A DNA stretch of 64,000 bases from Adineta vaga (lineage: Eukaryota > Animalia > Rotifera): assembly GCA_021613535.1 (NCBI GenBank), contig CP075494.1, positions 434,001 to 498,000 of the forward strand. The letters are read 5' to 3'. Shown here piece by piece: positions 2,401-48,148 of the stretch. Position 1 is the first letter of the stretch. Each line of letters opens with the position of its first letter. A program made the translations under genes and the position numbers. The notes beneath the pieces were generated by a model, which saw only the letters and a program-made list of their open reading frames with translations, had not been told where the DNA came from and ran no database searches.

Positions 2401-5400
2401 TATTACCCACGCTTGCAATACTCTGATGACGCTATTTTTTTACATATGAATAGAAATGTGATTCTCTAATAAAGAGCTGAAGATGTAATCTATTATTTAC
2501 TTTGACTATCTTGACGGTGTGAGTATTATATTCAAATAGCACGCACATCCTTTCTTTTTTGACAGCAATATATTTCTTCACATATCATCCTAATATTTAT
2601 TAAAAGAACAGCTCTGGAAAAGTTATGATGATCTTGGATTTTCAGAAATTTATTTTATATTTTGTGGGAGAGCGGTGCCATCCCTGCCCTCTCGCTGGAT
2701 AAAATACTCCTGACAAATTCCGATCCGTCCATTCTTTATATCTTTCTTTCTGTTCTCTCCTTCCGCGGTCACGTATAAATAGCTCTGTTCGTGCTTTGTT
2801 CGTTCGTCAGGGTTCTAGGAAGTAAACTAAACACGCTAGCCAAAGAACTGTGGTTCACTTCATATAGAAAAAAAATGAACCAATCAAATTTGAGTCCATA
2901 TTACACTATAATGTATCATTTTTCTCTTTTCCTACGTAGACCATTACACGAAATGAATTAGGGTGAAACCTAGGGGTGTCGTGTCGGATTAGTACTAGTA
3001 TTAAAATTAACATCAATGCTTTGGCGTTAGCATTATTTTCAATGTTGATACATATGCTTCCTGTAACTTTTTAAGGGCTGCTTGGCGCACGCTTAGTTAC
3101 TTTTTAAGAGCTATTCGGGGGTACAAGGCCTATCTTGAGAGAGTATGTGTAACGTCCCAAGCACTAACTGTGGATAGCATCTGAAAATTTACAAGCGTTG
3201 CTTTCGAATAGCAACTGTTACTTTAGGAGAGCTAGCTTCTGGCAGTAGCTGCAGTTTTACCAAAATAACTTGCGAAAGTAGTCGTTACACTACAAACTGT
3301 GAATTATTTTGGCACACGTAAATTTCTGAAGTCACTAGAATATCGTATCTAGCACCGTCGATAGTGGGTATAGCAATGGTCTGGCAAACTTTACTCTGAA
3401 TTCGCTGCGACAAAAATGCATTGCCAGACAGTTATGGAAAACGGCTACGTAGTAAATTGTTTCGCCTAAGTTAGTATCTCTCCGCGTAAAGCCAGTATGC
3501 AAGCACTCCTTGGGTGAAAATAAATCCTTGAGAAGAAAGGAAAATCTCTATGGTCGAAAGAATTGAACCTAAAAAACCCATTGCCTTTATCGCTCTGGAT
3601 AGCAAACCGTTTCGAATATTTAACATACAAACTATAAACACTCATAACGTTGCATAATCTCCTAGCTAATACTATTTCAATATCGTTTTCACGTAACTAA
3701 ACTTGCGATCTTGAGTTAGATACTTCGGAAAAGGTTATTATGCATACTCCACCGTAACTAAGACATGTACCAGTCAAGCCACAGTGAAACTCCTCAACAT
3801 CATGTATACACGGATCGTTGACCGTTATAAGGTCCACTACAATGTATCCCATAAGAAAATGTGTCTTCTGATATGAGATAGGCCTTAAAAAGTTATTAAA
3901 GAAATCCCGGATAGTCCTTAAGAGAGGGTTTGTGGGACCACCAGGCAAACCGGTTGCTAAAAAATGTTAATATTTCAAATGAGTTTCCTAGTTTGAAAAA
4001 ACATAAAACGTTACTCAAAAATCCAAATCTTTACAGTTTTTAGGGGAAATCTTTGAATACTTCGAAGATCTGATTGTTTTGTTCGAAAATATTGCTATGT
4101 CGAAAACTATGGCTTTTAGATCGTTTCTCTTTATGAAGTTTTGATCACAAAAAATTGATTAAAATCGTTATTAAATTATACCAATCGATAGAGCATACGT
4201 TATTCTACAAAACCCTATATTTTCTATGTTATTCTGTGTCTACAAAATTCAAAAAAAAATCATTATAATAGGTGAAATCGACCATTTTTTGATCTATTTT
4301 ATTTACATGCTGTCGTTTACCATTCTTGCATCTTTTATGTAGTTACTTTTCAATAGCTTAAGATAAATTGTACATAGTTTTGTCGAGTGTTAAAAGATGC
4401 ATCTTTTCATAAAAAAATTCAATATAAAGTACTCGCAAGGATCCATAAAGTCCATAATAATGATGTCCACTATATATATATCATTTTTATGAAAATATGT
4501 ATCTTTAGCAGAAGGAGCTTCAAATTATGGTGTAAAACGAAGTAATCTACTAGAAGATCTCACCGTGTACTCACTTGTGTTGCTTTTTCCGCAAACAATC
4601 AGATAATCTCTTTAGTAATAGAATGAATAGTTTGAATTTGATAAGAACAAAAGGAGAAATAGATTGAAAAAGAAATAATATTGGTGAAGATTTTTTTTAT
4701 TAAAAAAAATTCTCATTTACAAGAATGAGACGCTAACAAAAATAAGTCTTCACTAAAACCAATAGAAAAAGCAATAAACATAATTTCGATGAAAGTGAGC
4801 AGTATAATATATGTAACAAAATTTTGATTTGAATGCAGTGAAAAAGACTGAAATAAAAATGCACTACGCGAACAATCAAGCCCATGATGACAAGGAAATG
4901 AATAAAAAAAGAATTGAATTACGATCAAATGCAAATATTGCGTCGATTACCATAGTGCTCATGGCGTATTCTAAATATTGAAAAAATCCATTCTATTACC
5001 TCTGACTATCAGCGATCGATATTCTAATCTGTTCGAAAGATAATAGGAATATATATGTTATTAACTATTTGTTTCTTTCGATTTTCGATAAATAAATATT
5101 ATTTCTTACGGATAATCGTTGATTTCAATTAACAGTAACTATCAGAAATGATGAAAGAAGAAGGATCGTTAAGTGATGTGGACGATTTTCTGAAAAGTTT
5201 AAATCTAACTTTTCAGTGACATTATTTTAAACGTCTATAATCTATTTCTCGTTATATCAGGATGTGAGTATTCTAAATGTGATTACAGATTATTTCTCAT
5301 ATTCATATCCTCGAGTATTTCTTTATTAAATATTAGAAGTTCGTAAATTTAAGTAATTCCCATGTTATTTGGCGAGTGTTCATCGTGATGATAAATGTAT

Positions 5401-5428
5401 TCTCTTAAAGAAGACACCAAAATTAGAA

Positions 5429-5484
5429 CATGTGGGTGTGGGTATTCCATCTACTCCCACACCCACACCCTCACCCACATCGAG
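5429..5484. repeat. Telomere-repeat palindrome at the truncation point of a ricin-B gene
   Basis: catgtgggtgtgggtattccatctactcccacacccacaccctcacccacatcgag. Confidence 0.9.
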
Positions 5485-6530
5485 TGTTTTACCAGATTCG
5501 ACATTAATCAATTCATATAAATTATCTCCAACTGATTTCAAAAACCATCGTTGTGCAACTGAACGATTGTTTGTACAAAGTTGAACATTAGTACCATCTG
5601 AATGTCCATCATACCAGTAATATCTGATGCTTTATCACTATGTGGATTAAATAATTGAATTGAATCATCATCATATCCATAGATAACCCAAATTTGATTG
5701 AGACCTTTGTGATTTTTAAAAATTTCAACATTGGCACCATCATGTATACCACTATCATGTACATCAAGAACCTTGTTTGAACCGGTATGAATGAATTGAT
5801 GGGTATTACCAAAAATAATATTGACTTCGTCTACATAAAGAAAAAAACGTACATTTTAAAAGTATAGAGAATGAATTTTATTCTCAAGATACTCGTTGCC
5901 AAAAAAAATAGAACTGTAAAACTAGCACTGTATTTACACTCACTTTCTTCTGTTTTACCAGGAGCTGGAAATGTATCGAGATATTCTCCAAACCATACAT
6001 TTGCAATTCCTTTATAAACACCAACACCCATGGTTTTCATCGGTCCCCAACCACCTCTTTGTATCATGATATTATTATGACCAGGACTATTTATCCAACT
6101 TTGAACAGCTTCGTATGGATCAATATTCATTCTTTTTCTCGCATCATGAACATATCCATGTGAATTTTCATAACCAGTATAGTTATAATTACTTATTTCC
6201 GGTGGTTTACTCCACATTAAGTGTCCTTGTGCATGATCACTTGATATATCAGGATTATTTTCAACAAGATCAATAGCATGAGTACGAGCAACAAAAGCAA
6301 GATTAGCAGATGGTTGAAGTGCAGGTAAACCATGATTTTCACGATGATTATTGATAAATTTAAATATTTTCTGTTCTACATCATTCATACCATAAAATGA
6401 TGATCTTCGAATTCGATGAACTATTAATGAAAAGAAAGAAATGATGAATAAGATTTATATTATTCATTTATTTTAGTCAGTTAAATGATAAATAATAATA
6501 TTTACCTTTTTCATTGTTGATTTTCGTCTC
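5478..6530 (-). pseudogene. CAP/SCP domain plus ricin-B lectin repeats; frameshifted and 3'-truncated
   Basis: CAP motifs INNHRENHGLP, ARTHAID, WINSPGHN. Next exon has NKVLDV..DGANV..NQIW and AQRW..LYELINVESGKTLDV. A frameshift lies near 5612 and the reading frame runs into the palindrome. Confidence 0.75.
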
Positions 6531-7147: not shown

Positions 7148-8606
7148 ATGATATTTATTGGTATTTTAATCATTATCAGTTTATCTTTCGATTTGATCAA
7201 ATGCGATATTAATTGGAATGGAAACAATTGGGCATTTGCTTGTGATTTCAAAGGAAATAATCTTTCAAATGTACGAATTCCTGGAGAACAATGTGGTGGG
7301 AAATGTACAAGGACTCCTCAATGCACTCACTTTGTGTGGACAACTTCTAATGGTGGAACTTGTTGGATGAAAAAAGGTGCGGTTTCAAAAAAAGATGCTA
7401 TTGCAACTAATGATAGAAATATGGTCTGTGGTGTAATGAAAAGGTAAGATGGAAAACAAAATCGATGTTATTGATGATATATGAAGTTTCAAAACAGGAT
7501 AGAGGTTTCAGTGAGGATGAGCGTGGGTGTGGGTATTCATGCTTATACCTTATTTTTCACGTATTCTTCATCATTCTATTAATTTAGAAAACCTGTTTTT
7601 AGAATGAGAACTTGAAAACAAATTTATATGATAGATAACTATATGGGATACAGAAAATGAAAGAAAAGAAAGTCAATATTATTTATTAGCAATATCTTAA
7701 AACTTTCGATATCTTTTTTTTTCGATCTTTTTGTTCCACATTTTTGCTTATAACATTTATTTTTTCGACGTTCGTGTAGTAAATCAACGGAAAAACCCTT
7801 CTACATTATTGCACATATGGCTAACAGCAAGTTTGCTGTTGACTGGGCTGTGAAACAGGGTGCAAATGCCATCGAATGTGACTTACGTTTTGATACCAAT
7901 GGAAATCCCTCTGCTATTGACCATGGTCCTGGTTGTGATTGTGAATGTGCGAAAGGAAACGATCATATTTGCATTGCTCTTCAGAATCAATGTTCAGGAC
8001 CCGCATCTCGTGAAAATCCAGCAGTTTATATGCAAAATGTTGCACGTCATAATAGTATTGGTCTTTACTTCGTGGATTCCAAAGTGGGTGGTTTTTCAGA
8101 AGAAAGATTGGTTAAAGCAGGCAAAGCTCTTATTCCTTTCATGGACAAGAATTTATTTGGTTACGGTTATAAAGGAGCTGTTGTTATCTCATCAGCATCA
8201 TTTAGTACGTTTGCTTACGTTCGATCAGCAGCAATAGCAGCAAAATCTTCACGAAATGCAAATCATTATTTCTTCACGATTGATCAAGAAGAAAATAACT
8301 ATGCTGGTGTCATGAATAAGCTTTATCCATATACAAACAATCGAGTCTATGGTACTGGTCGTGGTTCATGTGGTGAGGGTGAAACGTATTATACTGCCAT
8401 CGAAACTGCTGTTGCTGGCAAAAAGCAAGGTGAAAATGGCATGAATTACATCTACACCGTGGACCAAGAAGAAATCATGCGACAATATATCAAACATGGT
8501 GTCGACGGAATTATGACAAACCAGATTGCCTTAGCAAAGAAAGTTGCAATATCGATGGGCCTAAGACTTGCACATCTCAGTGATAGGATTTCAATTTCAA
8601 AAAAAC
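7148..8606 (+). CDS. Secreted PAN/apple domain plus sphingomyelinase D / GDPD-like phospholipase D (SicTox-like)
   Basis: Signal peptide and PAN cysteine pattern in 7148-7443. Phase-2 donor AG|gtaag at 7444 joins the acceptor at 7779 in frame. Catalytic motifs FYIIAHMAN, GANAIECDL, DHG..CDC, YTVD, GVDGIMTN. Confidence 0.8.
7511..7552. repeat. Degenerate telomere-repeat element inside the predicted PAN-SMaseD intron
   Basis: gtgaggatgagcgtgggtgtgggtattcatgcttatacc. Confidence 0.65.
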
Positions 8607-8764
8607 GTGAGTATGAAAGCTTTTATTATAATAATACAGCAAAAACAAGCGATGAATTTGATCTAGTGACAAACACTTATTTACCCTGGATTGATATTTT
8701 ATCACTGTTATCGAAAATGAATTGCTATTGAAGTTATGTTCTAATTTTTCTAGCATATATATGA

Positions 8765-19620: not shown

Positions 19621-19680
19621 TCTTGAGAGTGTGGGTTCGAGAGTGGGTGTATCTTATTCACTCATACCCATACACCCGTA
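19621..19680. repeat. Telomere-repeat palindrome (spacer type A-like)
   Basis: tcttgagagtgtgggt...gtgggtgtatcttattcactcatacccatacacccg. Confidence 0.8.
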
Positions 19681-19934: not shown

Positions 19935-19983
19935 GATGTGGGTGTTGAAAGAGAAGACACACTCACCCACACCCTCAAGATGG
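19929..19983. repeat. Telomere-repeat palindrome
   Basis: ctcgaggatgtgggtgttgaaagagaagacacactcacccacaccctcaagatgg. Confidence 0.85.
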
Positions 19984-20211
19984 TATATAGATTATGCGAA
20001 GAGATGATGCACCACAAATGATCAATTTTTTGATACAGTAATTTATTTTCTATATTCTTTCGTTTATCAATAAATATAAATCATTGCTTCAAAGTAACAG
20101 AACACTTATTATCTACTTCTATGTATAAGTGAAGCATTGAGAAAAGGTAAAAAAATATTATAAGTACACGTGTTTCGTCATTTTTGTCTTTGTTTTCTTT
20201 CAGAAATATCG

Positions 20212-21117
20212 ATGTTGGATGTGTCTAATAGTATTACTCTATTGACAAACTTTTTCATTCATCTACGTCTGAAATTTAGTTTATTTCTCGCACCTATTTA
20301 TCTCTATGGTATTATCATAGGAAATGGAAATATTTTTACATGGGAATTCTGGATTGAATTTAATATTCTTCATATTTTTTTATATGGTGGTGTGTATGCA
20401 TTAAATGATTATTACGATCGAAATGAACAAGGACCGATTGGTGGTCTGAAAAATCCTCCTCCGGTTAAAGGTGATTCACTTTTCTATTTAGCTTGGTTAT
20501 GGAAATTGATTGGATTATCTTTAGCAATCATTTATTCAACGTCTGTACAATTTATTATCGTTTGTTTTCTTGATATTCTTATGTCAGTTGCTTATTCACA
20601 TCCGAAAATTCGTCTGAAAGGTAGTCCACTTGGAAGTATTCTATTAGTCATCTTCTTTCAAGGTTTTCTTACTTATTATTTGGGAATAATTCTCAACAAT
20701 AGTCAACTTAACGGAATATCATTCATTAAATTCTGGTTAGGAGCATTTGTTATCATTTTTCTGATACTTGGCACTTATCCTTTAACTCAAATCTATCAAA
20801 TTGAACAAGATAAATGTCAAGGCGATTCTACAATCGCCATTGTCTTAGGTATTGAAAAGACTTTTCAATTTTCATCTTTATGTCTATTGATCAGTGGTAC
20901 GTTGAATAGTTTATTAATTGGATATTATTATCATTGGTGGGAAAGTGTCATTATTCTCATTGGTTCTTTTTTATTTCAATATAATCTTCGAAAATGGAGA
21001 AATATTTTCTCACAACAAACAGTTTATGAAAATTTCCAGATTTTACATCGATTATTTTCTATTCAAACTATTTTCCCATTTGTCTTTTGTCTTGGGCATT
21101 TATTACATATTCTATAA
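20212..21117 (+). CDS. UbiA-family prenyltransferase, bacterial-like and intronless
   Basis: NDYYDRNE Asp-rich motif, YSHPKIRLK, YPLTQIYQIEQD..GDSTIA; multiple TM helices. Confidence 0.85.
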   Translation: MLDVSNSITLLTNFFIHLRLKFSLFLAPIYLYGIIIGNGNIFTWEFWIEFNILHIFLYGGVYALNDYYDRNEQGPIGGLKNPPPVKGDSLFYLAWLWKLIGLSLAIIYSTSVQFIIVCFLDILMSVAYSHPKIRLKGSPLGSILLVIFFQGFLTYYLGIILNNSQLNGISFIKFWLGAFVIIFLILGTYPLTQIYQIEQDKCQGDSTIAIVLGIEKTFQFSSLCLLISGTLNSLLIGYYYHWWESVIILIGSFLFQYNLRKWRNIFSQQTVYENFQILHRLFSIQTIFPFVFCLGHLLHIL

Positions 21118-21131
21118 GATACCTTTTAATA

Positions 21132-21206
21132 AGAGGGCTAGGGGAGGGTGGGTGTGGGTGTAATTTAAACTGAAGAAGAACGTCCACCCTCATCCACACC
21201 CTTCGA
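21132..21206. repeat. Telomere-repeat palindrome between two convergent genes
   Basis: agagggctaggggagggtgggtgtgggtg...ccaccctcatccacacccttcga. Confidence 0.85.
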
Positions 21207-21296: not shown

Positions 21297-24200
21297 TTAA
21301 GTCGGATGAGAATACTTTGCCGTATGTTCTGGATTTTTTGTTGATCGACATTCAGCTCCATATCTACATGGAATTAGACGACGTTTTGCTACACCTGTAC
21401 TACTTGATGTTTTATTTTCTAAAATCAAATTGAAATAGAAATATTTGAATTATAGAAAATCTTTTTGTTTTACTTTTAAATGGAGAAATTTCTTCATTAT
21501 GAAAATATTTTATTCGATGTTCGGTAGTATTATTTCTACAGATCTCTTGATCACGACATGGATAGAGATAATCAGGTTTTCCTGTATGTCGATATTGAGC
21601 ACGATGAACTGGATCAGTAAGTTTCGAACAATGATTATCATTTGAACATTTAGGAACATTATGTTGTTCATGAATAAGATTAGGTTCATTATCCTGATTT
21701 CGACATAATTCATTAAAACGACATGGATGGGAATACTTGTTAGTATGATCTCGTTGATTTAATTGTAAACAATAGATAGAATCTTGACAAGGAGGTAATT
21801 TAACAGAAGCGGCCGATGTTGGATTTGGTTTTTTCGTAATAGATGATGATGGATTATATGCCCTGTTTTCAGGATGTGAATCGTATGTTGTGCGTTTTGG
21901 AGCCGATGTGTGAGCATCATCGGAAACTTGTCTTGGTGAAATATTTCTTTTCGGCGGACCAAATAGTGCAATTCTAATGCGTTGAAAAAAAGATGGCTTC
22001 GGTACATATGATGGATGTTCAACAGGAGCTCTTGGTGGCGGTTTAGAATGTTCAGAAGTTTCTTTACTTGTTCCAGATGCTCCAGCATGATAGCCAATAA
22101 TGGTAGGCATATAATCAAACGGTTCTCGAGTCTGTTTTATTAATTTAGATGTATCAACTGTATAATCTCTATCGAATGTTGGATGTAATTCAGGTATTTC
22201 TTCGTGACGAATAATTAAATTACGTATTGGAACATCTTCAAGTCCACCACTAACGTGAATATAATCTAATCTTGATAAATCTAATTCTGATTTATCAAAT
22301 TGATAAGAAATCTGCTCATGATTATAAATACCATTTGGACCAGCATGTGATAAAGTGACTTGATTATCTTTATAAGTAATTTTCAAACAAAAAGTAAAGA
22401 AATCATCTGTATTACAACCACGATAGAAAACATTTGATTTGGCTTTAAATTGAGCTTTATGCGTATTATTGTAATGTTGAGCAGGATGATCATCATTTAA
22501 ATATGAATATGTTTCATGATAATCGTCAGTCGCTTGAGATGGTTTTTCTGCAACATAACAATTGAGATATCGTAATTTATTTTGATCTTTATCATTTGTT
22601 TGAATTTTTTCATTGGCTAATGTTAACATCATATCACCATTCATTGCTTGCCAATATATATAAGTATATTCAAGATGATTGCCTTTATGAGACTTATCAA
22701 GAGAATATAATTTGTATGATTGAGAAATTGTAATTGGTATAACGATTTGATCATCAAATTTTGTTCCGGCAATAGTTATAACAATACCACGAGAGATTTG
22801 CGGTGCTGCCATTCTTTGTTTAATTTTTGCGAGGTTTTGTTCAAGTATATATTGTCGGTATGGTATACGAGATGCATCTAATTTAACAAGTGAACCTGGT
22901 ACGATTAAACTAAGATCAATTGTATGGTCAGTTAATATCAATGAATCACGAAAAACTGCTCGAGCAGATTTTCGAGCTTCATCACTCAATGATTGATATA
23001 AATTTTTTGGCATATAAACATTCTCAATGTAATCTAAAGGAATTAATTGAGGTAAATGACTTTCGAATACATCATGCGAATCTCGATCGAGACTGGTCCA
23101 TTGTTGAATAATAGTATTTAGATTGATGTCCATCGATTTCTGATTTTTACCATAAAAAGCAATAAGTTCCGTAGCTGCAGCGTATTCATAACGAGGAACG
23201 GAACAATGTAATTTAGCATTATGAAAATCTTCAATGCGTTTATCCTCGCTACCTGGATCTGTCCACCATGAACGTAGTTTATAAACTCTTGCACTAGGAA
23301 AACCAGTGCCAGCTTGAAAAGTAAAATTTGCATCTGGATGAAACATAATTTCTTGCTTGAACGTAATAACAATATCACCATAATAAGTACCAGTATGTGG
23401 TCCTAATATACTAAAAATATGTTGATCTGTTCCTAATTTTGTATCAACATCATATCCTATTCCCATTGGTTTAGATGTTAATTTAATCGATGCTTCAGCT
23501 ATTTTAACTGTCCATTCATGTATCACTTGAATACTTCTGTCATCAAGTGGTGGTTTTAGTTTTCTTTCGATAGTATTAATATTATCGTTATGATCAGCAT
23601 CCGTAGAAGTTATTCCATAAGTTCCTGCTTTTGCAAATTCTGCGTGAACTAACAGTTTAATCAATTCATGAACATTATGTTTTACTTCAGAACTGTTATG
23701 TTCGAGAAGTATTCGACGTATTCGACTATGTTGCAATACAGCTTTAGCAACATGTTTGGGATTTTTTAGTAATTCCATAAATCGACGACTCATGACATGT
23801 CCAAGTACAAGAATTGATTCAAAAATAAGTGGACTACAACGATGTACGGGTTGTAATGCTCGTATCCAATCGAGTATTTCTCGAGGAATCGAAGCTTTTT
23901 TCCATCCGTTTGCGTCCGTATATGCTTTAAGATTTCGTATTATTTCTCCTTGATTATGTGTAAAATTGATCGATGCATTGAAATTTCTCGATGGTGCAAA
24001 GCTTAAATGATCATAATTTTGTCCATGTCGAAACTTTCGTAGATGTTCATCTTTAAGTCGATCATGACATTTGAAACCTGGATGTTTACAAAACAGACGA
24101 ACATCTCGAATTTTGGAATGACTGAAAGATTCCAAATGTTCTTCATCAGTAAGCTTCGTACATTTATCTTCTTGAGAGCAAAGATGACGAGCAATATGAA

Positions 24201-27105
24201 TCGATGTTAAAAAGTGTGAAAGATCTTTTGTTTTGCATTGACGGCCAAATAAACACACGTGTGAATGTTGAAGGCAATGATTTTCGACTTCGGGATCAAG
24301 TTTTTCTCCTGAACGTAGTTGCGTGTATGTCACATATTTTGGACAATTATAAGGTGTAAATGGGCAAGGTATTCGGAACGAATGAATTGTATCTTTTATA
24401 TGTTCTTTATCATGAAATCTAACACAACAATTATCTTGAGGACAGATTGATCTAAAATGACGATTAGTAGTACAATGTTCTTGATCTCCTTTTAAATAGT
24501 GTGGACATTTAAGTCTCAGTGGACAAATTGGAAAGTGACGATGATTGAATAAATGATCTGAATCTGTAATGTGACAATCAATTCCATCTTTACATAGTTG
24601 CGGATGATCATATTCACTTATATGGTTGGGATCATTATTTTGACATTCCCCGCCATGCTTACATTTGATATTATGACGAAATGTAAACATATGTATCTCA
24701 TCATCTATTTGTTTACATGGTGATTCTGTACTTTGATGAGAACATACTGGTGGATGTGAAAATTCGTTACAATGTTGAACATCTTTTATTTCACGACACT
24801 TTATGCTGTGATGACATGGCGATTTGTATAAGATACGTGCTTCACTAAGAGTTAATTGTCCATCTGACGATTTATTAAGTATAGAATATGGTCCAGTAAC
24901 TCCATTAAGTCGTAATACTTTCGGTGGATAAAATGTCTGATTATCTAATATTCTTTGAAATGGAGCAAAATTTCCATTTGGATTCATTTTATTCCCAATA
25001 TTATGATCATCAATTATAGCAAAATAAATTTTATCAAAATATCCAGCATATTGAGTAATAACAGATTTAAAAAGTAGCGCAATATGTTCCGGTGGATTTT
25101 TAAAAGCACCACAACCAAGAGCCGATAAGACCAAACAATCATGATTTTGATGATATCCAATTGCAAAAATGTTTTCAATCTTTTTATGTGTATTTACAGC
25201 AACTTTATCTTCTAACATATTATCTTTAGTCAATTGAGGATCTCGAAATGCAGCTATAGCTAAAGAACAAACATTCGAAAGTGGTTTAGCCATATATGCA
25301 TAACCTTCTTCTTCTTCTCGTTGTCGAAAGACAGTTATACCAGATGTATAAATAGCACCAAACAGTTCCATTGGATAGAAACCTTTATATCCAGTTGGTT
25401 TTCTAATTTGACCTTTCTTATTACAATACAATGGTTCTGATTGATCTTTATCAGCTATTTCTATATCTAAACTTTGATAATAATCAGATCGACGAAAAAG
25501 ATTTTCTTCTTGAGCTCCATCACCTTTTCGATAACCACCACCGGGACTTGTTGCATTGGCCATATTTAATAATAATGGTCGACATCCGCTAACCGCTAAT
25601 TTTTCATAAAGTACCAGACAATCTTCATTAACAACATGAACTGTTGTTGATTCATAAGGAGTTTTAAATTCAGATTCTTTTATAGTTTTTCCATCGAATA
25701 ACTTCGATTGATGATCATAACCGATTGTTTTCAAACGTTGTAAATCTAATTTCACTTCTTTTCCATTAACAACATATTTTTTCTTTCGAAGAACAGCAAT
25801 TGTATTTAACATGACTGTTACTCGTAATAAATGTAAAATACGATCGTATTTAGAATCTCGTTTTCTTTGTCTTTTAGCTTTCTCATATTGTTCCAACCAA
25901 TTTTGAGCATTCCATTTATAATGAAGAATCGGATGCTGATGATTATTGATAATTGTTGTTATATCTGGTGTAGCTTCAAGCATTAATGTTTCGTACCAAT
26001 TTTCGGCATTTATTTCACATTGATCTGGATTAATATCAATAGTATGTGGATTAATACGCATAAGAGCATTATCAACACGAAGCGCGCCAACTGCCAGACA
26101 CCTAGTAAAACTATCTAAACCATCTAGTTCGATAACAAGATGATCATCGTTAAGAGAATGATTAAGAACTTGACCTTCAAATATTTGGTTTTCAATGATA
26201 CGATTGATATCAAACCCACGTGGAAGATCAGATACAATAACTCGATAAGCAAGTTTTGTTTTTTTCGATAAATTTCGTCCATTGAGTACGATAAAACCTT
26301 GACTTTTCCATTTTTTCCATGATTTTGATGCGATTACAACTGCATTACTGGTTATTCTGTCATATTGTACGTGAAAAGCAGTCGATGGAAGTGTATTTTC
26401 ATCAATTTGTGCAGCAACAGCATTCATAAGTTTATCATTATTTGTATTTGAAGGTAATTCTTCAAAAAAATCACAATCAGCACGCGGGTAAACTTGGGCA
26501 ATACTATTTCCTATTTTAAAATCTGGCATATCAGCAGCAGCAACAAGTTCATCAAAATTTGTTAAGAAAATTCGATAAATGTTCGGAAACTGAACAGAAA
26601 CAGGTTCGCAATTATATTCATCAGATGTATTATATGCTTGCATATAATAACGAGATACTTTAGTTCCCGAAGGAAATTTCGTCTTAGTTTGATCTAGTAC
26701 AATATATGAATCAAATTCTAATATATCGACAAATGAAATTGTAATATTCAAATCTTTATCAAAAATCATAGTTTGAACATCATTAAGAAGATATGTTCGA
26801 TCGTCTTCCTTATGTAATTCAACTACAGCAATACCAAGTTTTAAATAACATTCGACATTTTTTATTGTCATACGTCCAATTTTTTCAATACAACATCGAA
26901 GTTTTTCTTGAAGATTATCGTTTGGATAATTCATCGGTAAATCTGGTATATACACTAATATGTCTTGATTAACATTAGTCTTTGGAGGTAGTCCTAGTTT
27001 CTTAGTTGATTTCGTGGATGATTTATGACTCGTTGAAGGTTTCGAAGCATCTGCTCCTTTCGAAGGAGAACTTATTTGAGAGTCACTATTATTATCATTT
27101 GACAT
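21297..27105 (-). CDS. Large multidomain protein: TIGR02452/DUF2263 microbial-type PARG, PBZ-type zinc-finger arrays and a candidate ART-fold domain
   Basis: LNMANATSPGGGYRKGDGAQEENLFRRS and LSALGCGAFKNPP; many C-x5-C-x5/6-H-x5-H units. A terminal exon at 21297-21418 splices in frame and encodes CRYGAECRSTKNPEHTAKYSHPT*. Confidence 0.9.
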
Positions 27106-27587: not shown

Positions 27588-27661
27588 TCGAAAGGGTGTG
27601 GGTGTGGGTGTGGGTGTAGGTGTTTTCTTCGTCTGTACTGACACCCAAACCCTCAAGATGG
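27588..27661. repeat. Telomere-repeat palindrome
   Basis: tcgaaagggtgtgggtgtgggtgtgggtgtagg...gacacccaaaccctcaagatgg. Confidence 0.9.
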
Positions 27662-31936: not shown

Positions 31937-33179
31937 TTAGGTTGTCAACAAAGTTTTGGCGTTTTTTTCAAAAATTTTATTTTTGTTTTTTCACTTCAAA
32001 AGTACAACTAGTTTTCAGATATATATTTACCATTACTATCTACCACTTGTTGCCAACGCTCTGGCAGAGACATGATCCCGCGCTCGTAGAAGTCCTGGGA
32101 TTTTTCATCAAAGAACTTGACAAGCTCCGTTTTGACATCGCTTTCGTCGTCGAACTTTTTATCACGTAAATCATTCGAAAGAGATCGAAACAAATGGTAG
32201 TCTGTTGGAGCCAAGTCAGGGGAATAAGGTGGATGAGGAATGGTAATCCAGCCGAGCTTCAATAATTTTTCACGGGTCGACTTTGCTACATGTGGTCTAG
32301 CGTTGTCATGTAAAAAATAAACTCGATCCTGCTTTCCCTTGAGCTTTTCTGCAACCCGATCCAATTGTTGACAGTACAGATCAGCAGTGATGGTGTAACC
32401 ATTTGGTAGAACTTCCCAGTGGATAACTCCTTTGATACCCCACCAGACGCTCAGCATCAATTTCTTGGGATGGAGATCAGCCTTCGGTGTTGCTACGCCG
32501 GTTTGACCAGCGCTCAGCCACTGACGTCGACGCGGGTAGTTAACATACAACACCCACTTCTCATCACCAGTAATCAGATTGGATAACCATTGGTAGTTGC
32601 GGTGAGATGTGATTAAATCCATACATGCATCAACTCTCTGTTGCAGCTGATGTGCCGATAATTCATGAGGTATCCATACCCCATATTTCCAGGTCTTGCC
32701 TAATTCGTTCAGATGTTTTTCCACCGTAGTATGAGAGCACCCGAGCTGCTCTGCTAAACACCGTAAAGTCAGTCGAGGATCTTCTTCGATAAGCTGCTTT
32801 AAAAAGTCCACATCCACTTCCATTGGTCTACCAGATCGAGGTAAGTCGTCGAGTTCTAAATCGCCATTCTTGAAATGATTGAACCAACGTTGCGCGGTAC
32901 GAGTGGAGACTAGACCCTGACCCATCGTGCCGCATATGTTGCTGGCTGCTTCCGTTGCTTTGTGCCCCAAACGAAATTCATGAAGTAAAAGCACTCGAAC
33001 CTCTCTATGAGAAAGATTTATCTTTGACTCGACATCAACGTCCATATCAACGATTTTTTTTATCATTCAAAAGACATTCATGTCCTATATATATACCCTT
33101 AGTATGGAAACTTCTAGAACTTTCTTGGTTGTTCTACAAGATTTTAGAAAAAAACGACAGAACTTTGTTGACAACCTAA
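31937..33179 (-). mobile_element. Full-length mariner (DD34D) DNA transposon
   Basis: TIRs TTAGGTTGTCAACAAAGTT.. and ..AACTTTGTTGACAACCTAA; TA on both flanks; about 1.24 kb. Confidence 0.97.
32008..33066 (-). CDS. Mariner transposase, intact
   Basis: WIPHEL, ITGDEKW, HDNARPH, YSPDLAPTDYHLF. Confidence 0.97.
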   Translation of the reverse strand: MIKKIVDMDVDVESKINLSHREVRVLLLHEFRLGHKATEAASNICGTMGQGLVSTRTAQRWFNHFKNGDLELDDLPRSGRPMEVDVDFLKQLIEEDPRLTLRCLAEQLGCSHTTVEKHLNELGKTWKYGVWIPHELSAHQLQQRVDACMDLITSHRNYQWLSNLITGDEKWVLYVNYPRRRQWLSAGQTGVATPKADLHPKKLMLSVWWGIKGVIHWEVLPNGYTITADLYCQQLDRVAEKLKGKQDRVYFLHDNARPHVAKSTREKLLKLGWITIPHPPYSPDLAPTDYHLFRSLSNDLRDKKFDDESDVKTELVKFFDEKSQDFYERGIMSLPERWQQVVDSNGKYISEN

Positions 33180-39767: not shown

Positions 39768-40976
39768 TCAGTATTGTTGTTTCAAATAAATCGTTGTTCT
39801 TTCTTCTTCTTCTTGTTCGATCTCTGTAATAAGAAAACACGAATACGGCAAGATTAATATTTCTGCTTCATATTTGAATTCTGATATATTTGATATATCA
39901 ATAGCAGTTGATTTGTCATTCGTTATTTCATAAATACAAAAGTAAGAATGTTTATCTAAATCAGATATTTCTTCACCATAAGAAAACATTTTAGCAACAT
40001 TAGGATCTGTTGATGTTGAGAGAAATGTAGTTGTCATAATACAAGAATCAACTTTGTAATGATCAAGTAAATGTCTTGAAAGAACAATACCACGATAAGT
40101 TTTACCAATAAAACTAAGTTTTCGATATTTATCATAACGAAAAAGAATACTCATGATTGCTTTTGTACCATCTTCTGTTGAATATAGACAATCACATGAA
40201 AATTGACTACAACCATTATTTAGATCATGTATAATATTACGTGCCATATCTTTATTTAATAATCTGGAAAAATTTTGACAAATCGTATATGCAGTAATAA
40301 TATAATCAGGTTCTTCTTCATGTAATGCACTTTCTAGATTATTAAGTACTTTTGTATTGATTTCCAAAGAAGAATCTCGCAGACGTGTATTGATATAACC
40401 TTTTTTTATTGTATGAAGTTTTCGTTTCAAGTCATTTCTACTCATTGGTGTGAATAACTCTAATTCATGACGAAATCTCAATGATTTTTCTGTTGCATTT
40501 TGATCAATTAACTCCCATTCATAGAAATTGATATCATTTACTAATGAACAAATTTTACATTTAATTCTCGGTTGATCCGCGACAATTGTATCATTGGATT
40601 TAAGTATGAATATAAAACGATTCGATTGTGGACGTTGAAATAAATCTTCAATTTCTTTTGTTTCAGCGAATTCATAAGGTTGATGACCATCTGCATTAAT
40701 TAGCGATCGTCTTGCACCATACGCTAAGAGCATTTGAATAATTTCTTTATGTTGATTTCTTGTAGCAACATGCAAAGCCGTTTCATTCATTGGTGGATAT
40801 TGATAATTAATTTCTTCGAAGTTCATTGTTTCCAAGCATGATTTTACACGTACAAAATCGTTCGTTTGACAAAAAATGTAGAGTGATGAAGGAGAAGAGT
40901 TAAGATCTCTCCAAAACTGAAAGTATTTAGACAATCGAAAACGTCTCTGTGTATTCATTTCATCAGAATGCGTCAT
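39768..40976 (-). CDS. Ankyrin repeat plus R-S-E type ADP-ribosyltransferase
   Basis: ETALHVA ankyrin motif; TYRG, FLSTS and EAEILILP catalytic motifs. Confidence 0.9.
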   Translation of the reverse strand: MTHSDEMNTQRRFRLSKYFQFWRDLNSSPSSLYIFCQTNDFVRVKSCLETMNFEEINYQYPPMNETALHVATRNQHKEIIQMLLAYGARRSLINADGHQPYEFAETKEIEDLFQRPQSNRFIFILKSNDTIVADQPRIKCKICSLVNDINFYEWELIDQNATEKSLRFRHELELFTPMSRNDLKRKLHTIKKGYINTRLRDSSLEINTKVLNNLESALHEEEPDYIITAYTICQNFSRLLNKDMARNIIHDLNNGCSQFSCDCLYSTEDGTKAIMSILFRYDKYRKLSFIGKTYRGIVLSRHLLDHYKVDSCIMTTTFLSTSTDPNVAKMFSYGEEISDLDKHSYFCIYEITNDKSTAIDISNISEFKYEAEILILPYSCFLITEIEQEEEERTTIYLKQQY

Positions 40977-41170
40977 GTTTTGTACAAAAAATACGTGCAA
41001 TAATGACTCTGTTCTGTCATGTTCGTTTTACTTCCTTTATCAGTAAATCATTCAAGTGTAATAACTAAAAAAGCAATTAATTATTATATCATACAGGTAA
41101 ACGAGTTTGTAATGAGTAATGAAAACATTGGAAAAAAGAAGAGAAATAGTTTCTTCCCGTGCATTAAACA

Positions 41171-45424: not shown

Positions 45425-47971
45425 TTAAAATTGTTTACGAACATCTTCGAGTAATTTGTTGAGTTTGGTTATATCATTACCAAGAAGATTGAGTAGATAT
45501 TTACGTGCTTTTTGTACAATACCATACCACATTGATGAAAGAGAAGCAAAACGTGTTTCAAGTATTGCAATAATGATAGAAGAAAGAAGTATTTCTTTAT
45601 TTGCCATGTGTGCAAATGTCGTTAATGGTTTTTTAGTTAGTTTTTCAATATCATTTTCATCTATTTGCCAAGAACCATCAAATTTTTGTTTATTAATTAA
45701 ATAACGAACGATATCTTCGTCATTCATGATTGATAGATCAGTTGTTTGCGTTGAAAAACTATTATTATTGCGAGACTGAAAAGGATCGTCATCATCTTCA
45801 TCTTCTGATAATTCTTCATCGTCATCTTCATCTGGTAATGGTACACTCTGTACATATTAAAAATAGACACACTTAAAATTCAAATAAAATTTTTCAAAAT
45901 TATATAATACCTTTTGAATAGATCGACGACACAGCTCACGAAATGACATATCGCAATCAAATGAATCGTCATCATCCTCGCTTGAACAATCATCATCTGT
46001 CATGGGTGACGTTGTCGAATATGAACTATAGTAGTTTTGATGATAACTATGTAAATGTTGATCATCAGCTGATATTTGTATTGGTACTTCACGTAACACC
46101 ATATCACTATTATTTCCATTCAATCGTTTTTCAACACCAATAAATGCTGTATGAGGACTAAGAATATGATATTTTAATGATAATTCAATTATTCGTTTCT
46201 TTATTATTTCTTTTGCACTTTCATCATCATTGTTAACAGCTTTTTGATGTTCTTGAAAACGAGTTTGCAATGAACCTGGACTCATCTTTTGAGTTGATGA
46301 TGGTAGTTTTTCATGTTGTAATTCAACAATAAGTGCTTTAGCAGCTAATCGACCAATTGTTTCATTATTATTACTAACATTTGGTATTATATTCACTTTT
46401 GCTTCACCTAATCGATGTTGTCCACATGTTAATTCGACTCGTAAATTATGATCAAATCGAATGGATGAATTTTTAGCCAATGCATAAACAATTAAACGAT
46501 CATTTACATAAACAGGTGGCATTTTATTTGGAACACTTGTGATCATATCTAAGTTCCATTTGATTTCTACATTAGTTATACATGATTGTAAAGCTTTTTG
46601 TAATTGTTCACCAACATGAATATCAACACTTGTATGAGGAGGAATAAAAACAAATCGACCATTTGTTGATCGAGCTAAACCTTTTACAAGTGATCGACTA
46701 GGAGATGAACCTAATCCAAATGAAAATATTCGAGTTGATGTTGCCATTGTTCGACAAAGATCAATCACTTCATTCACATTCGAAACTTCACCATCAGTCA
46801 AAAGAAAGATTTGACGAGCACGTCCTTCAATCGTTGGATTTTTCTCAAGCCATTGTAATGGAGATAACTATGAATAGAATAATAATTGACAAACATTATT
46901 CTAAAGACAAATCTAAACAACACTCACTAATTCAGTACCACCTAAATCTGCTCTCATTGCCTTTGTAAGTTGTTCAGCTTCTTGTGAATTTATTTCATTG
47001 TATAGAACAGTCATTTCTGGAAATAAACTTTGATGATTACTACCAAATCGAATTATGTTGAAGTAACAATTCACAGGTAAACTCTTAAGAAAAAGTAACA
47101 TGGCTTGTCGAGCTAATTCAATCTTATTTTCTTCATCCATTGAACCACTACAATCAACAAGAAAAATAAATTCGTTTGTCATTTCTTTATTATTCATAAC
47201 TCGTTGACAATCTTCTTCATTTGGTGTAAATGAAACCATCATTGCACCATTTTCAACAGCTAAGATTGTATTCGAACGATGTTCAATCAATTGCATATCC
47301 AAAAGAATATCACGATCCAAACAAGTATTTTCTTGTGCAAATGTAATAACATAATAATCTTGTTTACTTAAATCCATTTGAATTGGATGTGATGAAGAAC
47401 TAATTCTAGCAATATTATATTTCTCTACTTGACAATGAAAACTAATTGTATATGGAACAGATTGAACATATTTTGATGTTGTACCAGCTGGTGAACTCAA
47501 ACTACCTTTATCAGGATTATAACGAGGTGCAATAGTTGTTGGTACAACAAATCGAATCTTTTCACCATTTTCAACAAGATTTAATTCAGTTACATAACAT
47601 ATTTCAATTTGACATTCTTTTCCAGATGGAAGTGCACCAACATTAATAATAAAATTATCTTGTGATTTTTCATCTTGTTCTAATAAATAAGCACCATGAC
47701 CTGATTGGAGAGCTTCACTATATTCTTTTTGTGCTGTTTTCTTTTCTTTTAATTCACCAATAATTTCTCGATCATCAATTCGTGCAATAAAACTATAGAT
47801 TGCTGCTTGTTCTTCAATTGGAAAACAATATACAGCTTCAATTGATGTTGATTCTTCATTGCGAAACAGTTGTGTAATACTCACATCAGCAGCAAAAGAT
47901 CGAATAGTTGCTGCAATATTCACTTGTTTAAGAGGAACATATTGTTGTGGATTTTGTTTGTTTCGAAGCAT
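45425..47971 (-). CDS. VWA5A-like VIT plus vWA domain protein, with short introns
   Basis: VIT (IEAVYCFP, NVGALP), vWA MIDAS DCSGSM, TDGEV, FSFGLG; C-terminal QKFDGSW; introns near 46870-46930 and 45850-45910. Confidence 0.9.
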
Positions 47972-48148
47972 GTTGTAAAAAAAAGTATATGTATCTCGAT
48001 CTTTTGTAAAAGAAAACCTTTAGCTTATATACTTGTCGTGACATGAAGAGGTAACAATAATAAACACAAGATTGTGCAATAATTGACTAGGAACAAACAA
48101 AAAGTGAGGAAGACATATTTTAGTGAGTCATATATTATTATAATACGG

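Follow-up and report, generated by a model that had tools for sequence, protein, structure and literature searches.

Coupling of an ADP-ribosyltransferase (ART) to a hydrolase is known from DarTG (PMC5179494, PMC10789625), and a writer, a reader and an eraser of ADP-ribose in one chain are known from PARP14 (PMC10499325). Transferases of the SopF/OspC type are known from pathogenic bacteria (Salmonella, Shigella), which inject them as effectors. Among these, CopC is described as using a His-Phe-Glu (H-F-E) triad and OspC3 as requiring E326 and H328 (PMC9239266), with D177 of OspC3 serving as base in deamination and D231 activating arginine (PMC11598138). Here we analyze a gene of the rotifer Adineta vaga that lies in a stretch of 64,000 nucleotides (assembly GCA_021613535.1, contig CP075494.1, positions 434,001 to 498,000; hereafter the window, in whose coordinates all positions are given). 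This one minus-strand gene, 27105-21297, has a single 55-nt intron and encodes a 1,917-aa protein, in which a central domain with a predicted ART fold shares one polypeptide with C-C-H-H fingers and a domain of the poly(ADP-ribose) glycohydrolase (PARG) family, as a preliminary description of the locus had proposed.

Predicted fold of the central domain

The central domain has no match in the Pfam, NCBIfam, PADLOC or PHROG families, nor by sequence in the Protein Data Bank (PDB). A Med10 match (E 0.2) was dismissed as noise, and a single-sequence AlphaFold prediction was rejected for its pLDDT of 34. An AlphaFold2 model built with 110 sequences, from whose alignment 18 rows, all long proteins, had been left out, reached a pLDDT of 94.9 and a pTM of 0.91.

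22921..23985, minus strand: unannotated domain with a predicted ART fold, aa 1041-1395 (AlphaFold2 model, fold searches, conservation)

We compared this model with 48,161 solved chains, and all 9 of the 9 chains at Z>=8 were ART-fold NAD enzymes, the best non-ART chain being a designed helical protein (Z 7.4). SopF ranked first (7dn9, Z 12.2, 206 residues aligned at 4.0 Å; 7dn8, Z 12.6 in a second search), followed by OspC3 (Z 11.1 for 7wr5, with 198 residues aligned at 3.5 Å, and 10.6), DarT (Z 10.8 for 7omv, with 176 residues aligned at 3.4 Å, and 10.7, 9.9 and 9.4), CopC (7xn4, Z 10.7) and Tpt1 (7yw4, Z 10.5). Foldseek also placed SopF first (E 1.5e-3), with DarT1 fourth. PARP-family chains were absent among the fold matches listed, which leaves a similarity to them possible. 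Among viral models the highest-ranked entries were uncharacterised proteins of phages and giant viruses, along with one DUF3626 protein; SopF itself is reported to contain DUF3626 (PMC6682159). An ART fold is therefore a high-confidence prediction for the central domain, as the preliminary description had suggested from short motifs when it named AlphaFold and Foldseek as the way to check; the lack of such a fold, which it had named as refuting its idea, was not observed in the model.

Conserved residues and relation to known transferases

Along the domain the conserved residues follow the order H1088 (in a strand), G1102..S1106, a helical insert of ~115 residues (about aa 1107-1224), D1221..T1226..F1231 (strand), Y1242-G1243, H1256-P-D and finally H1344..E1348-x-H1350-x-P1352 (strand). 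H1088, F1231 and E1348/H1350 lie in model strands E46-50, E190-194 and E308-311, respectively, so that H1088 and E1348, the residues that had been picked out beforehand, sit in conserved strands of the model; their motifs, PVHRC and DSHDVFESHLP, are encoded at 23850-23836 and 23082-23050. Just before the DSH motif the rotifer protein carries two extra residues (aa 1340-1341, 23083-23088), a position that is a gap in 98% of the 130 homologues aligned. In an alignment of 110 rows, 99 have residues at each of eight key sites, and 85 of these 99 keep all eight. E1348 is kept in 107/110 rows, H1350 in 105/110, F1231 in 106/110, D1221 in 107/110 and H1088 in 99/101 (the rows with a residue there), and the conservation of E1348, H1350, F1231 and H1088 spans rotifers, protists and phages.

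The strand that carries the catalytic glutamate separates this family from DarT. Among the family rows scored, 102/109 have an E-x-H-x-P strand, as do 40/40 OspC rows (picked for diversity from 83 matches and the query), as against 0/8 rows in a small DarT sample of one type, eight DarT2-type relatives of one E. coli protein; the residue at E+2 is His in 104/109 scored family rows and Leu in 8/8 DarT rows (A-E-x-L). Because E-x-H-x-P is shared with OspC and not with DarT, the motif points to the SopF/OspC side. In three runs of hhalign, E1348/H1350/P1352 were each time aligned with E326/H328/P330 of OspC3.

SopF is the best structural match (Z 12.2-12.6, 206-210 residues); it has the aromatic residue Y224 in a strand, another, Y240, just before a glycine, and the catalytic E325. 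In a reading by eye of the primers tabulated in PMC11937434, their flanks P-I-Y-A-A-L, S-A-Y-G-K and E-A-H-I parallel the rotifer H-I-F1231-S-I-L, Y-Y1242-G-D and E1348-S-H-L. The two domains share 12-13% identity, and SopF is an effector that bacteria secrete and host ARF activates, whereas the rotifer domain contains a long helical insert and shares its chain with PARG and fingers. The ADP-riboxanases OspC3 and CopC (PF06128; Z 10.3-11.1) resemble it in the H-F-E triad and in E-x-H-x-P. D1221 lies 10 residues before the strand phenylalanine F1231, matching D177 of OspC3 by spacing only, the distance being 11 residues in OspC3 (D177/F188) and CopC (D172/F183). No counterpart of OspC3 D231 or CopC D230 was found in the rotifer domain, there is no significant profile match, and the C-terminal ankyrin domain that recruits substrates to OspC/CopC has no ankyrin Pfam match in the rotifer protein. 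With DarT (PF14487) the domain shares the ART fold (Z 9.4-10.8), a His strand followed by a helix and Gly, and a catalytic Glu. It differs in the strand motif and in having no counterpart that we found for the invariant Arg after the first DarT helix (R57 in the E. coli sequence), where the rotifer domain has its helical insert.

Pfam gave no match to DarT PF14487 (whole protein at E<=1, 15 family members at E<=10), to OspC/CopC PF06128 or DUF3626, or to the PARP catalytic domain PF00644. The DarT-like assignment made in the preliminary description is not supported by these comparisons, given the strand motif, the missing DarT profile match and the Z of SopF (12.2-12.6, as against 10.8 for DarT). 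Taken together, the domain would work as an ART akin to SopF, OspC and DarT, is closer to the transferases that modify proteins, and belongs to none of the named families.

Eraser-family domain, fingers and gene structure

The remaining parts of the gene are as follows.

21474..27105, minus strand: exon 1, codons 1-1877 plus 1 nt (open reading frame, ORF, and identity to I4U23_022040)
26011..26973, minus strand: N-terminal region aa 45-365, possibly RRM-like repeats (weak PF18440/RRM_1 scores)
25000..25815, minus strand: microbial-type PARG domain (TIGR02452/DUF2263), aa 431-702 (profile matches and motifs)
24025..24816, minus strand: array of 9 regex-matched C-C-H-H motifs, aa 764-1027, diverged from PBZ (regex and shuffles)
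22126..22812, minus strand: conserved unannotated domain, aa 1432-1660 (present in 116/120 homologues)
21499..21789, minus strand: three more C-C-H-H motifs, aa 1773-1869, plus a degenerate one (regex and PBZ scan)
21419..21473, minus strand: predicted intron, 55 nt, GT..AG, phase 1 (spliced product equals the NCBI protein)
21297..21418, minus strand: exon 2, in frame, with terminal PBZ finger and stop codon (PF10283, E 8.7e-10)

The PARG-type domain announced in the preliminary description is clear. TIGR02452 (NCBIfam) matches aa 431-702 at E 7.4e-30 (104.4 bits, cut-off 50) and PF10021 (Pfam) matches aa 434-594 at E 8.5e-20 (72.1 bits, cut-off 23.5), and bacterial PARGs in the PDB match at E 6e-12 to 2.5e-8; in these alignments GGGYRKGDGAQEE falls on the GGG..QEE of the bacterial proteins. 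Close known counterparts are the microbial PARGs 3SIG and 5ZDx, which we take to be those of T. curvata and D. radiodurans, respectively; the rotifer copy differs in lying inside a 1.9-kaa eukaryotic multidomain protein. Microbial PARG motifs are given as GGGx6-8QEE and G[AV][FY] (PMC7050489), and the rotifer domain has an intact GGGx7QEE (GGG522-524, Q532 E533 E534) and GAF at 666-668, the strict GGGx6-8QEE form being kept in 94/120 homologues. Family membership suggests that the fused domain likely removes ADP-ribose. This hydrolase also sets the protein apart from DarTG, which likewise couples a writer to an eraser (PDB 7omu, titled DarTG, is a 376-residue chain): the rotifer eraser is a microbial PARG (PF10021/TIGR02452), not a TARG1-like DarG2 or a NADAR DarG1, and without a PADLOC match the proposed DarTG-like module does not hold.

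The protein contains 13 non-overlapping C-x5-8-C-x5-9-H-x4-5-H motifs, whereas 1,000 shuffles gave 0.115 on average and never more than 2. Nine of them fall in the internal array alone (shuffles: mean 0.67, maximum 4) and four on the C-terminal side, the fourth being the terminal finger in exon 2; the median layout of the 120 homologues is the same, with 9 before the ART domain and 4 C-terminal. By eye, a tenth, interrupted C-C-H-H motif can be seen within the array at aa 914-949. The terminal finger passes the Pfam PBZ profile (PF10283, E 8.7e-10, 38.8 bits against a cut-off of 22.7), and the canonical finger that had been expected in a final exon missed by the ORF track is indeed there. When the other 14 finger-sized pieces were scanned singly, none reached the PBZ cut-off, three scoring weakly (E 0.04-0.3) and 11 giving no PBZ score. 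With a single match among 15 pieces, the label 'PBZ-like', which had been applied to all of them, is firm for the terminal finger only, and it is to this finger that predicted binding of poly(ADP-ribose) (PAR) is confined; the C-C-H-H motifs themselves stand, and the non-terminal fingers are plausibly diverged PBZ relatives, judging from sequence.

The N-terminal region (aa 45-365), present in 93/120 homologues, matched PF18440 in 6/9 aligned members (best E 6e-4) and RRM_1 in 2/9 (best E 0.005), with all of these scores under the cut-off or not compared with it. The domain at aa 1432-1660 had no Pfam match and no PDB sequence match below E 1, and PDB profile searches with the N-terminal and C-terminal domains gave nothing significant. 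In two distant family members PF12248 sits after the ART domain.

Before splicing, the ORF (27105-21412, minus strand) encodes 1,897 aa; the spliced 1,917-aa product is letter-identical to the NCBI hypothetical protein I4U23_022040 of Adineta vaga. A comparison with 4 sequencing runs out of 14 listed did not show the joint spanning the intron; the pieces from these four were all short, diverged and paralogue-like and are no evidence either way. In one run (X1), a low-depth contig, probably of DNA, omits 1,829 nt within 24011-25841, that is, the PARG domain and the finger array; the skip lacks GT..AG ends and is possibly an assembly artefact.

Family, architectures and distribution

We found 176 homologues of 1,043-3,320 aa, and among the 120 listed, a set that includes the rotifer protein itself, all named ones are bdelloid, with at least 5 long A. 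vaga paralogues. The paralogues of I4U23_022040 in this species include 011751, 022569, 020114 and 017025. A profile search (E<=0.001) returned 431 clusters at 50% identity, with details available for the best 150 of the 431. Of these representatives 30 were looked up, and six were traced: one to A. steineri, three clusters to Diphylleia rotans, one to Symbiodinium natans and one to a transcriptome entry labelled as a red alga, where contamination is possible.

PARG is fused to the ART domain in 109/120 close homologues and in 15 of 37 selected distant ones, and the ART domain is also kept in proteins without PARG. WWE, PARP, GBP, ROCO-LRR and VWA fusions occur as single cases among the 37, and RING and Arf fusions are also found in homologues. 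Several individual architectures deserve mention. Two homologues (P0038, P0072) have PARG replaced by an arginine-type ART and another (P0040) carries an extra such ART at its C-terminus; one (P0029) has a MULE transposase inside the finger array. An Arf GTPase stands at the N-terminus of P0085, which may be a gene-model fusion and draws attention because SopF is ARF-activated.

Large mosaic proteins encoded on three distinct IMG/VR phage contigs carry the domain as their last part. On one of these contigs the order is portal, head morphogenesis, a 1,062-aa protein (with InPase PF18823) and head maturation protease. The phage homologues, as 500-1,130-aa mosaics beside head-morphogenesis genes, resemble polyvalent proteins, which are described as thought to be injected with phage DNA and whose ARTs have been proposed to modify host proteins (PMC5512222); the ART described there belongs to an H-Y-D clade, whereas the domain studied here is of H-F-E/E-x-H type. 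The phage homologues are likely packaged in the virus head. All 11 of the 11 phage-type rows keep H-x3-E-x-H-x-P. In a midpoint-rooted FastTree phylogeny (88 domains of >=300 aa, 340 columns), ten Lys-rich, finger-less phage-type proteins, just two of which have been placed on phage contigs, form one clade (support 1.0) and the rotifer-like sequences another (0.999); since the tree has no true root, it gives no direction of transfer and names no donor.

Two phage loci show further features. One 1,128-aa phage protein (L028, 2460-5846) has an HExxH motif together with an FHGT(S) segment and a DGLHRY segment, which we take to be ART-like and ParB-like, respectively, and may hold two different ART domains. 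In the other (L032) the domain is split within its helical insert over the adjacent ORFs 3381-5207 and 5228-6127. Neither of two pattern scans of GTDB genomes turned up a relative, their low sensitivity making this no proof of bacterial absence, and tblastn of the phage domain against INPHARED, also of low sensitivity, found none.

Proposed function and alternatives

With moderate confidence, we favor a reading in which the central ART is likely active and places a single ADP-ribose onto a protein side chain, PARG removes ADP-ribose and the fingers bind PAR or nucleic acid, the whole serving as a reversible stress or defense switch. By analogy with SopF and CopC, F1231 and Y1242 would stack the nicotinamide and E1348 would hold the N-ribose 2'-OH. 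The fingers and the N-terminal region would bring the enzyme to PAR- or RNA-rich sites, where the ART domain would modify its target, and PARG would trim PAR and so limit the signal. The immune-type domain fusions and the phage setting would favor defense over DNA repair.

Several results weigh against this reading. The hhalign comparisons with OspC were not significant in any of the three runs (probability 0.1-0.9%), residue equivalences beyond the E-x-H strand are a matter of motif order and spacing only, and Foldseek gave no match at E<=0.001. OspC3, CopC, DarT and Tpt1 score within about 1 Z of one another, too close for structure alone to indicate the substrate. Of the fingers, just one is a clear PBZ. 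PARG is missing from 11/120 homologues, some of them fragments, and the pairing is hence not obligatory. Microbial PARGs are, moreover, described in a review as strict PAR exohydrolases (PMC7050489), which fits poorly with the erasure of mono-ADP-ribose from a protein side chain. Given this preference, PARG may act on the chains of rotifer PARPs rather than on the ART product; it may be the eraser of the ART domain's own mark or of PAR from rotifer PARPs only, and either may hold.

A real though minor possibility is that the target of the ART domain is nucleic acid, at a base as in DarT or at a terminal phosphate as in Tpt1, with PARG reversing the mark in cis as in a fused toxin-antitoxin pair, which amounts to the idea of the preliminary description with a different eraser. 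PARG can remove ADP-ribose from nucleic-acid phosphates, DNA or RNA could be the target of the phage homologues, the N-terminal region bears a weak likeness to RRMs, and DarT (10.8) and Tpt1 (10.5) come within about 1 Z of OspC3 and CopC. Yet SopF is ahead by 1.4-1.8 Z with more residues aligned, the strand reads E-x-H-x-P instead of the A-E-x-L of all 8/8 DarT rows, no DarT Pfam match was found, and the hhalign comparison with DarT was not significant, its alignment falling outside the domain. The domain is also net neutral (42 K+R, 42 D+E), by a crude measure.

It is distinctly unlikely that the domain is mainly an NAD+ hydrolase, or the maker of a small ADP-ribose-type signal, triggered by PAR or infection and without a macromolecular target. 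The GBP, ROCO-LRR, RING and Arf fusions of homologues would suit defense signaling, the extra conserved residues H1344 and H1256-P-D find no explanation, and CopC-calmodulin is described in a figure legend as hydrolyzing NAD+ in vitro (PMC9239266). Against this, every close structural neighbor is a transferase, and the 115-residue helical insert and the conserved C-terminal domain would resemble target- or cofactor-binding parts. An inactive ART fold that merely binds or acts as a scaffold, in a protein that is just a PARG with readers, is very unlikely: some of the several A. vaga paralogues could be degenerate, but the near-invariance of E1348, H1350, F1231 and H1088 from rotifers to protists and phages, and the retention of the domain in proteins without PARG, argue against it.

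A bolder extension of the favored transferase reading, which we regard as unlikely, would make this domain the first enzyme with OspC/SopF-type chemistry to be encoded by eukaryotic cells and carried in phage virions, performing arginine ADP-riboxanation or another non-canonical ADP-ribosylation, as a PAR-gated innate-defense effector in rotifers and protists and a phage-injected weapon.

Genomic surroundings

The flanking genes are unrelated eukaryotic genes. The nearest is a convergent UbiA prenyltransferase ORF in a single reading frame (20164-21117, plus strand), which ends 180 nt from the stop of our gene. By eye, short repeated motifs of the GGGTGTGGGTG / CACCCACACCC type lie between genes on both sides (~19635-19680, 19935-19985, 21145-21205 and 27590-27660). 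A second, unrelated ART gene in the window (ORF 39771-41027, minus strand) combines ankyrin repeats with an arginine-type ART domain (PF01129, E 5e-5), and a gene at 45860-48019 (minus strand) has VIT and VWA domains, a layout that we take to be that of PARP4/vault-type proteins. The window further holds an open mariner/Mos1-type transposase ORF of 352 aa (32011-33066, minus strand) and a GDPD-family ORF (7754-8728, plus strand), whose start presumably resembles sphingomyelinase D-like phospholipases.

Significance

Literature searches returned no description of this ART family; they covered subscription journals poorly, and a prior mention is possible. The available part of a recent ART survey (PMC12522546) makes no mention of rotifers, SopF, OspC or DUF3626. 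What is new here is a combination of parts from other families than those of PARP14 or DarTG, together with an ART family for which four libraries have no profile. All three parts differ in family from their counterparts in PARP14 (and PARP9): the rotifer protein has a non-PARP ART, a microbial PARG in place of macrodomain 1, and C-C-H-H fingers in place of macro/WWE readers. It would be a second, independently assembled writer-reader-eraser besides PARP14.

In A. vaga, 17 PARP genes are described as over-expressed after irradiation (PMC10809525). The gene adds a candidate ADP-ribose pathway in this animal, its tie to the irradiation response not being shown. Its central claim is directly testable, as it concerns one soluble 355-residue domain with an obvious candidate for catalytic mutation. 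A large unannotated family with a SopF/OspC-type fold and strand motif in one animal lineage, in protists and in head-associated proteins of phages would extend the chemistry of these injected effectors to eukaryotic genomes.

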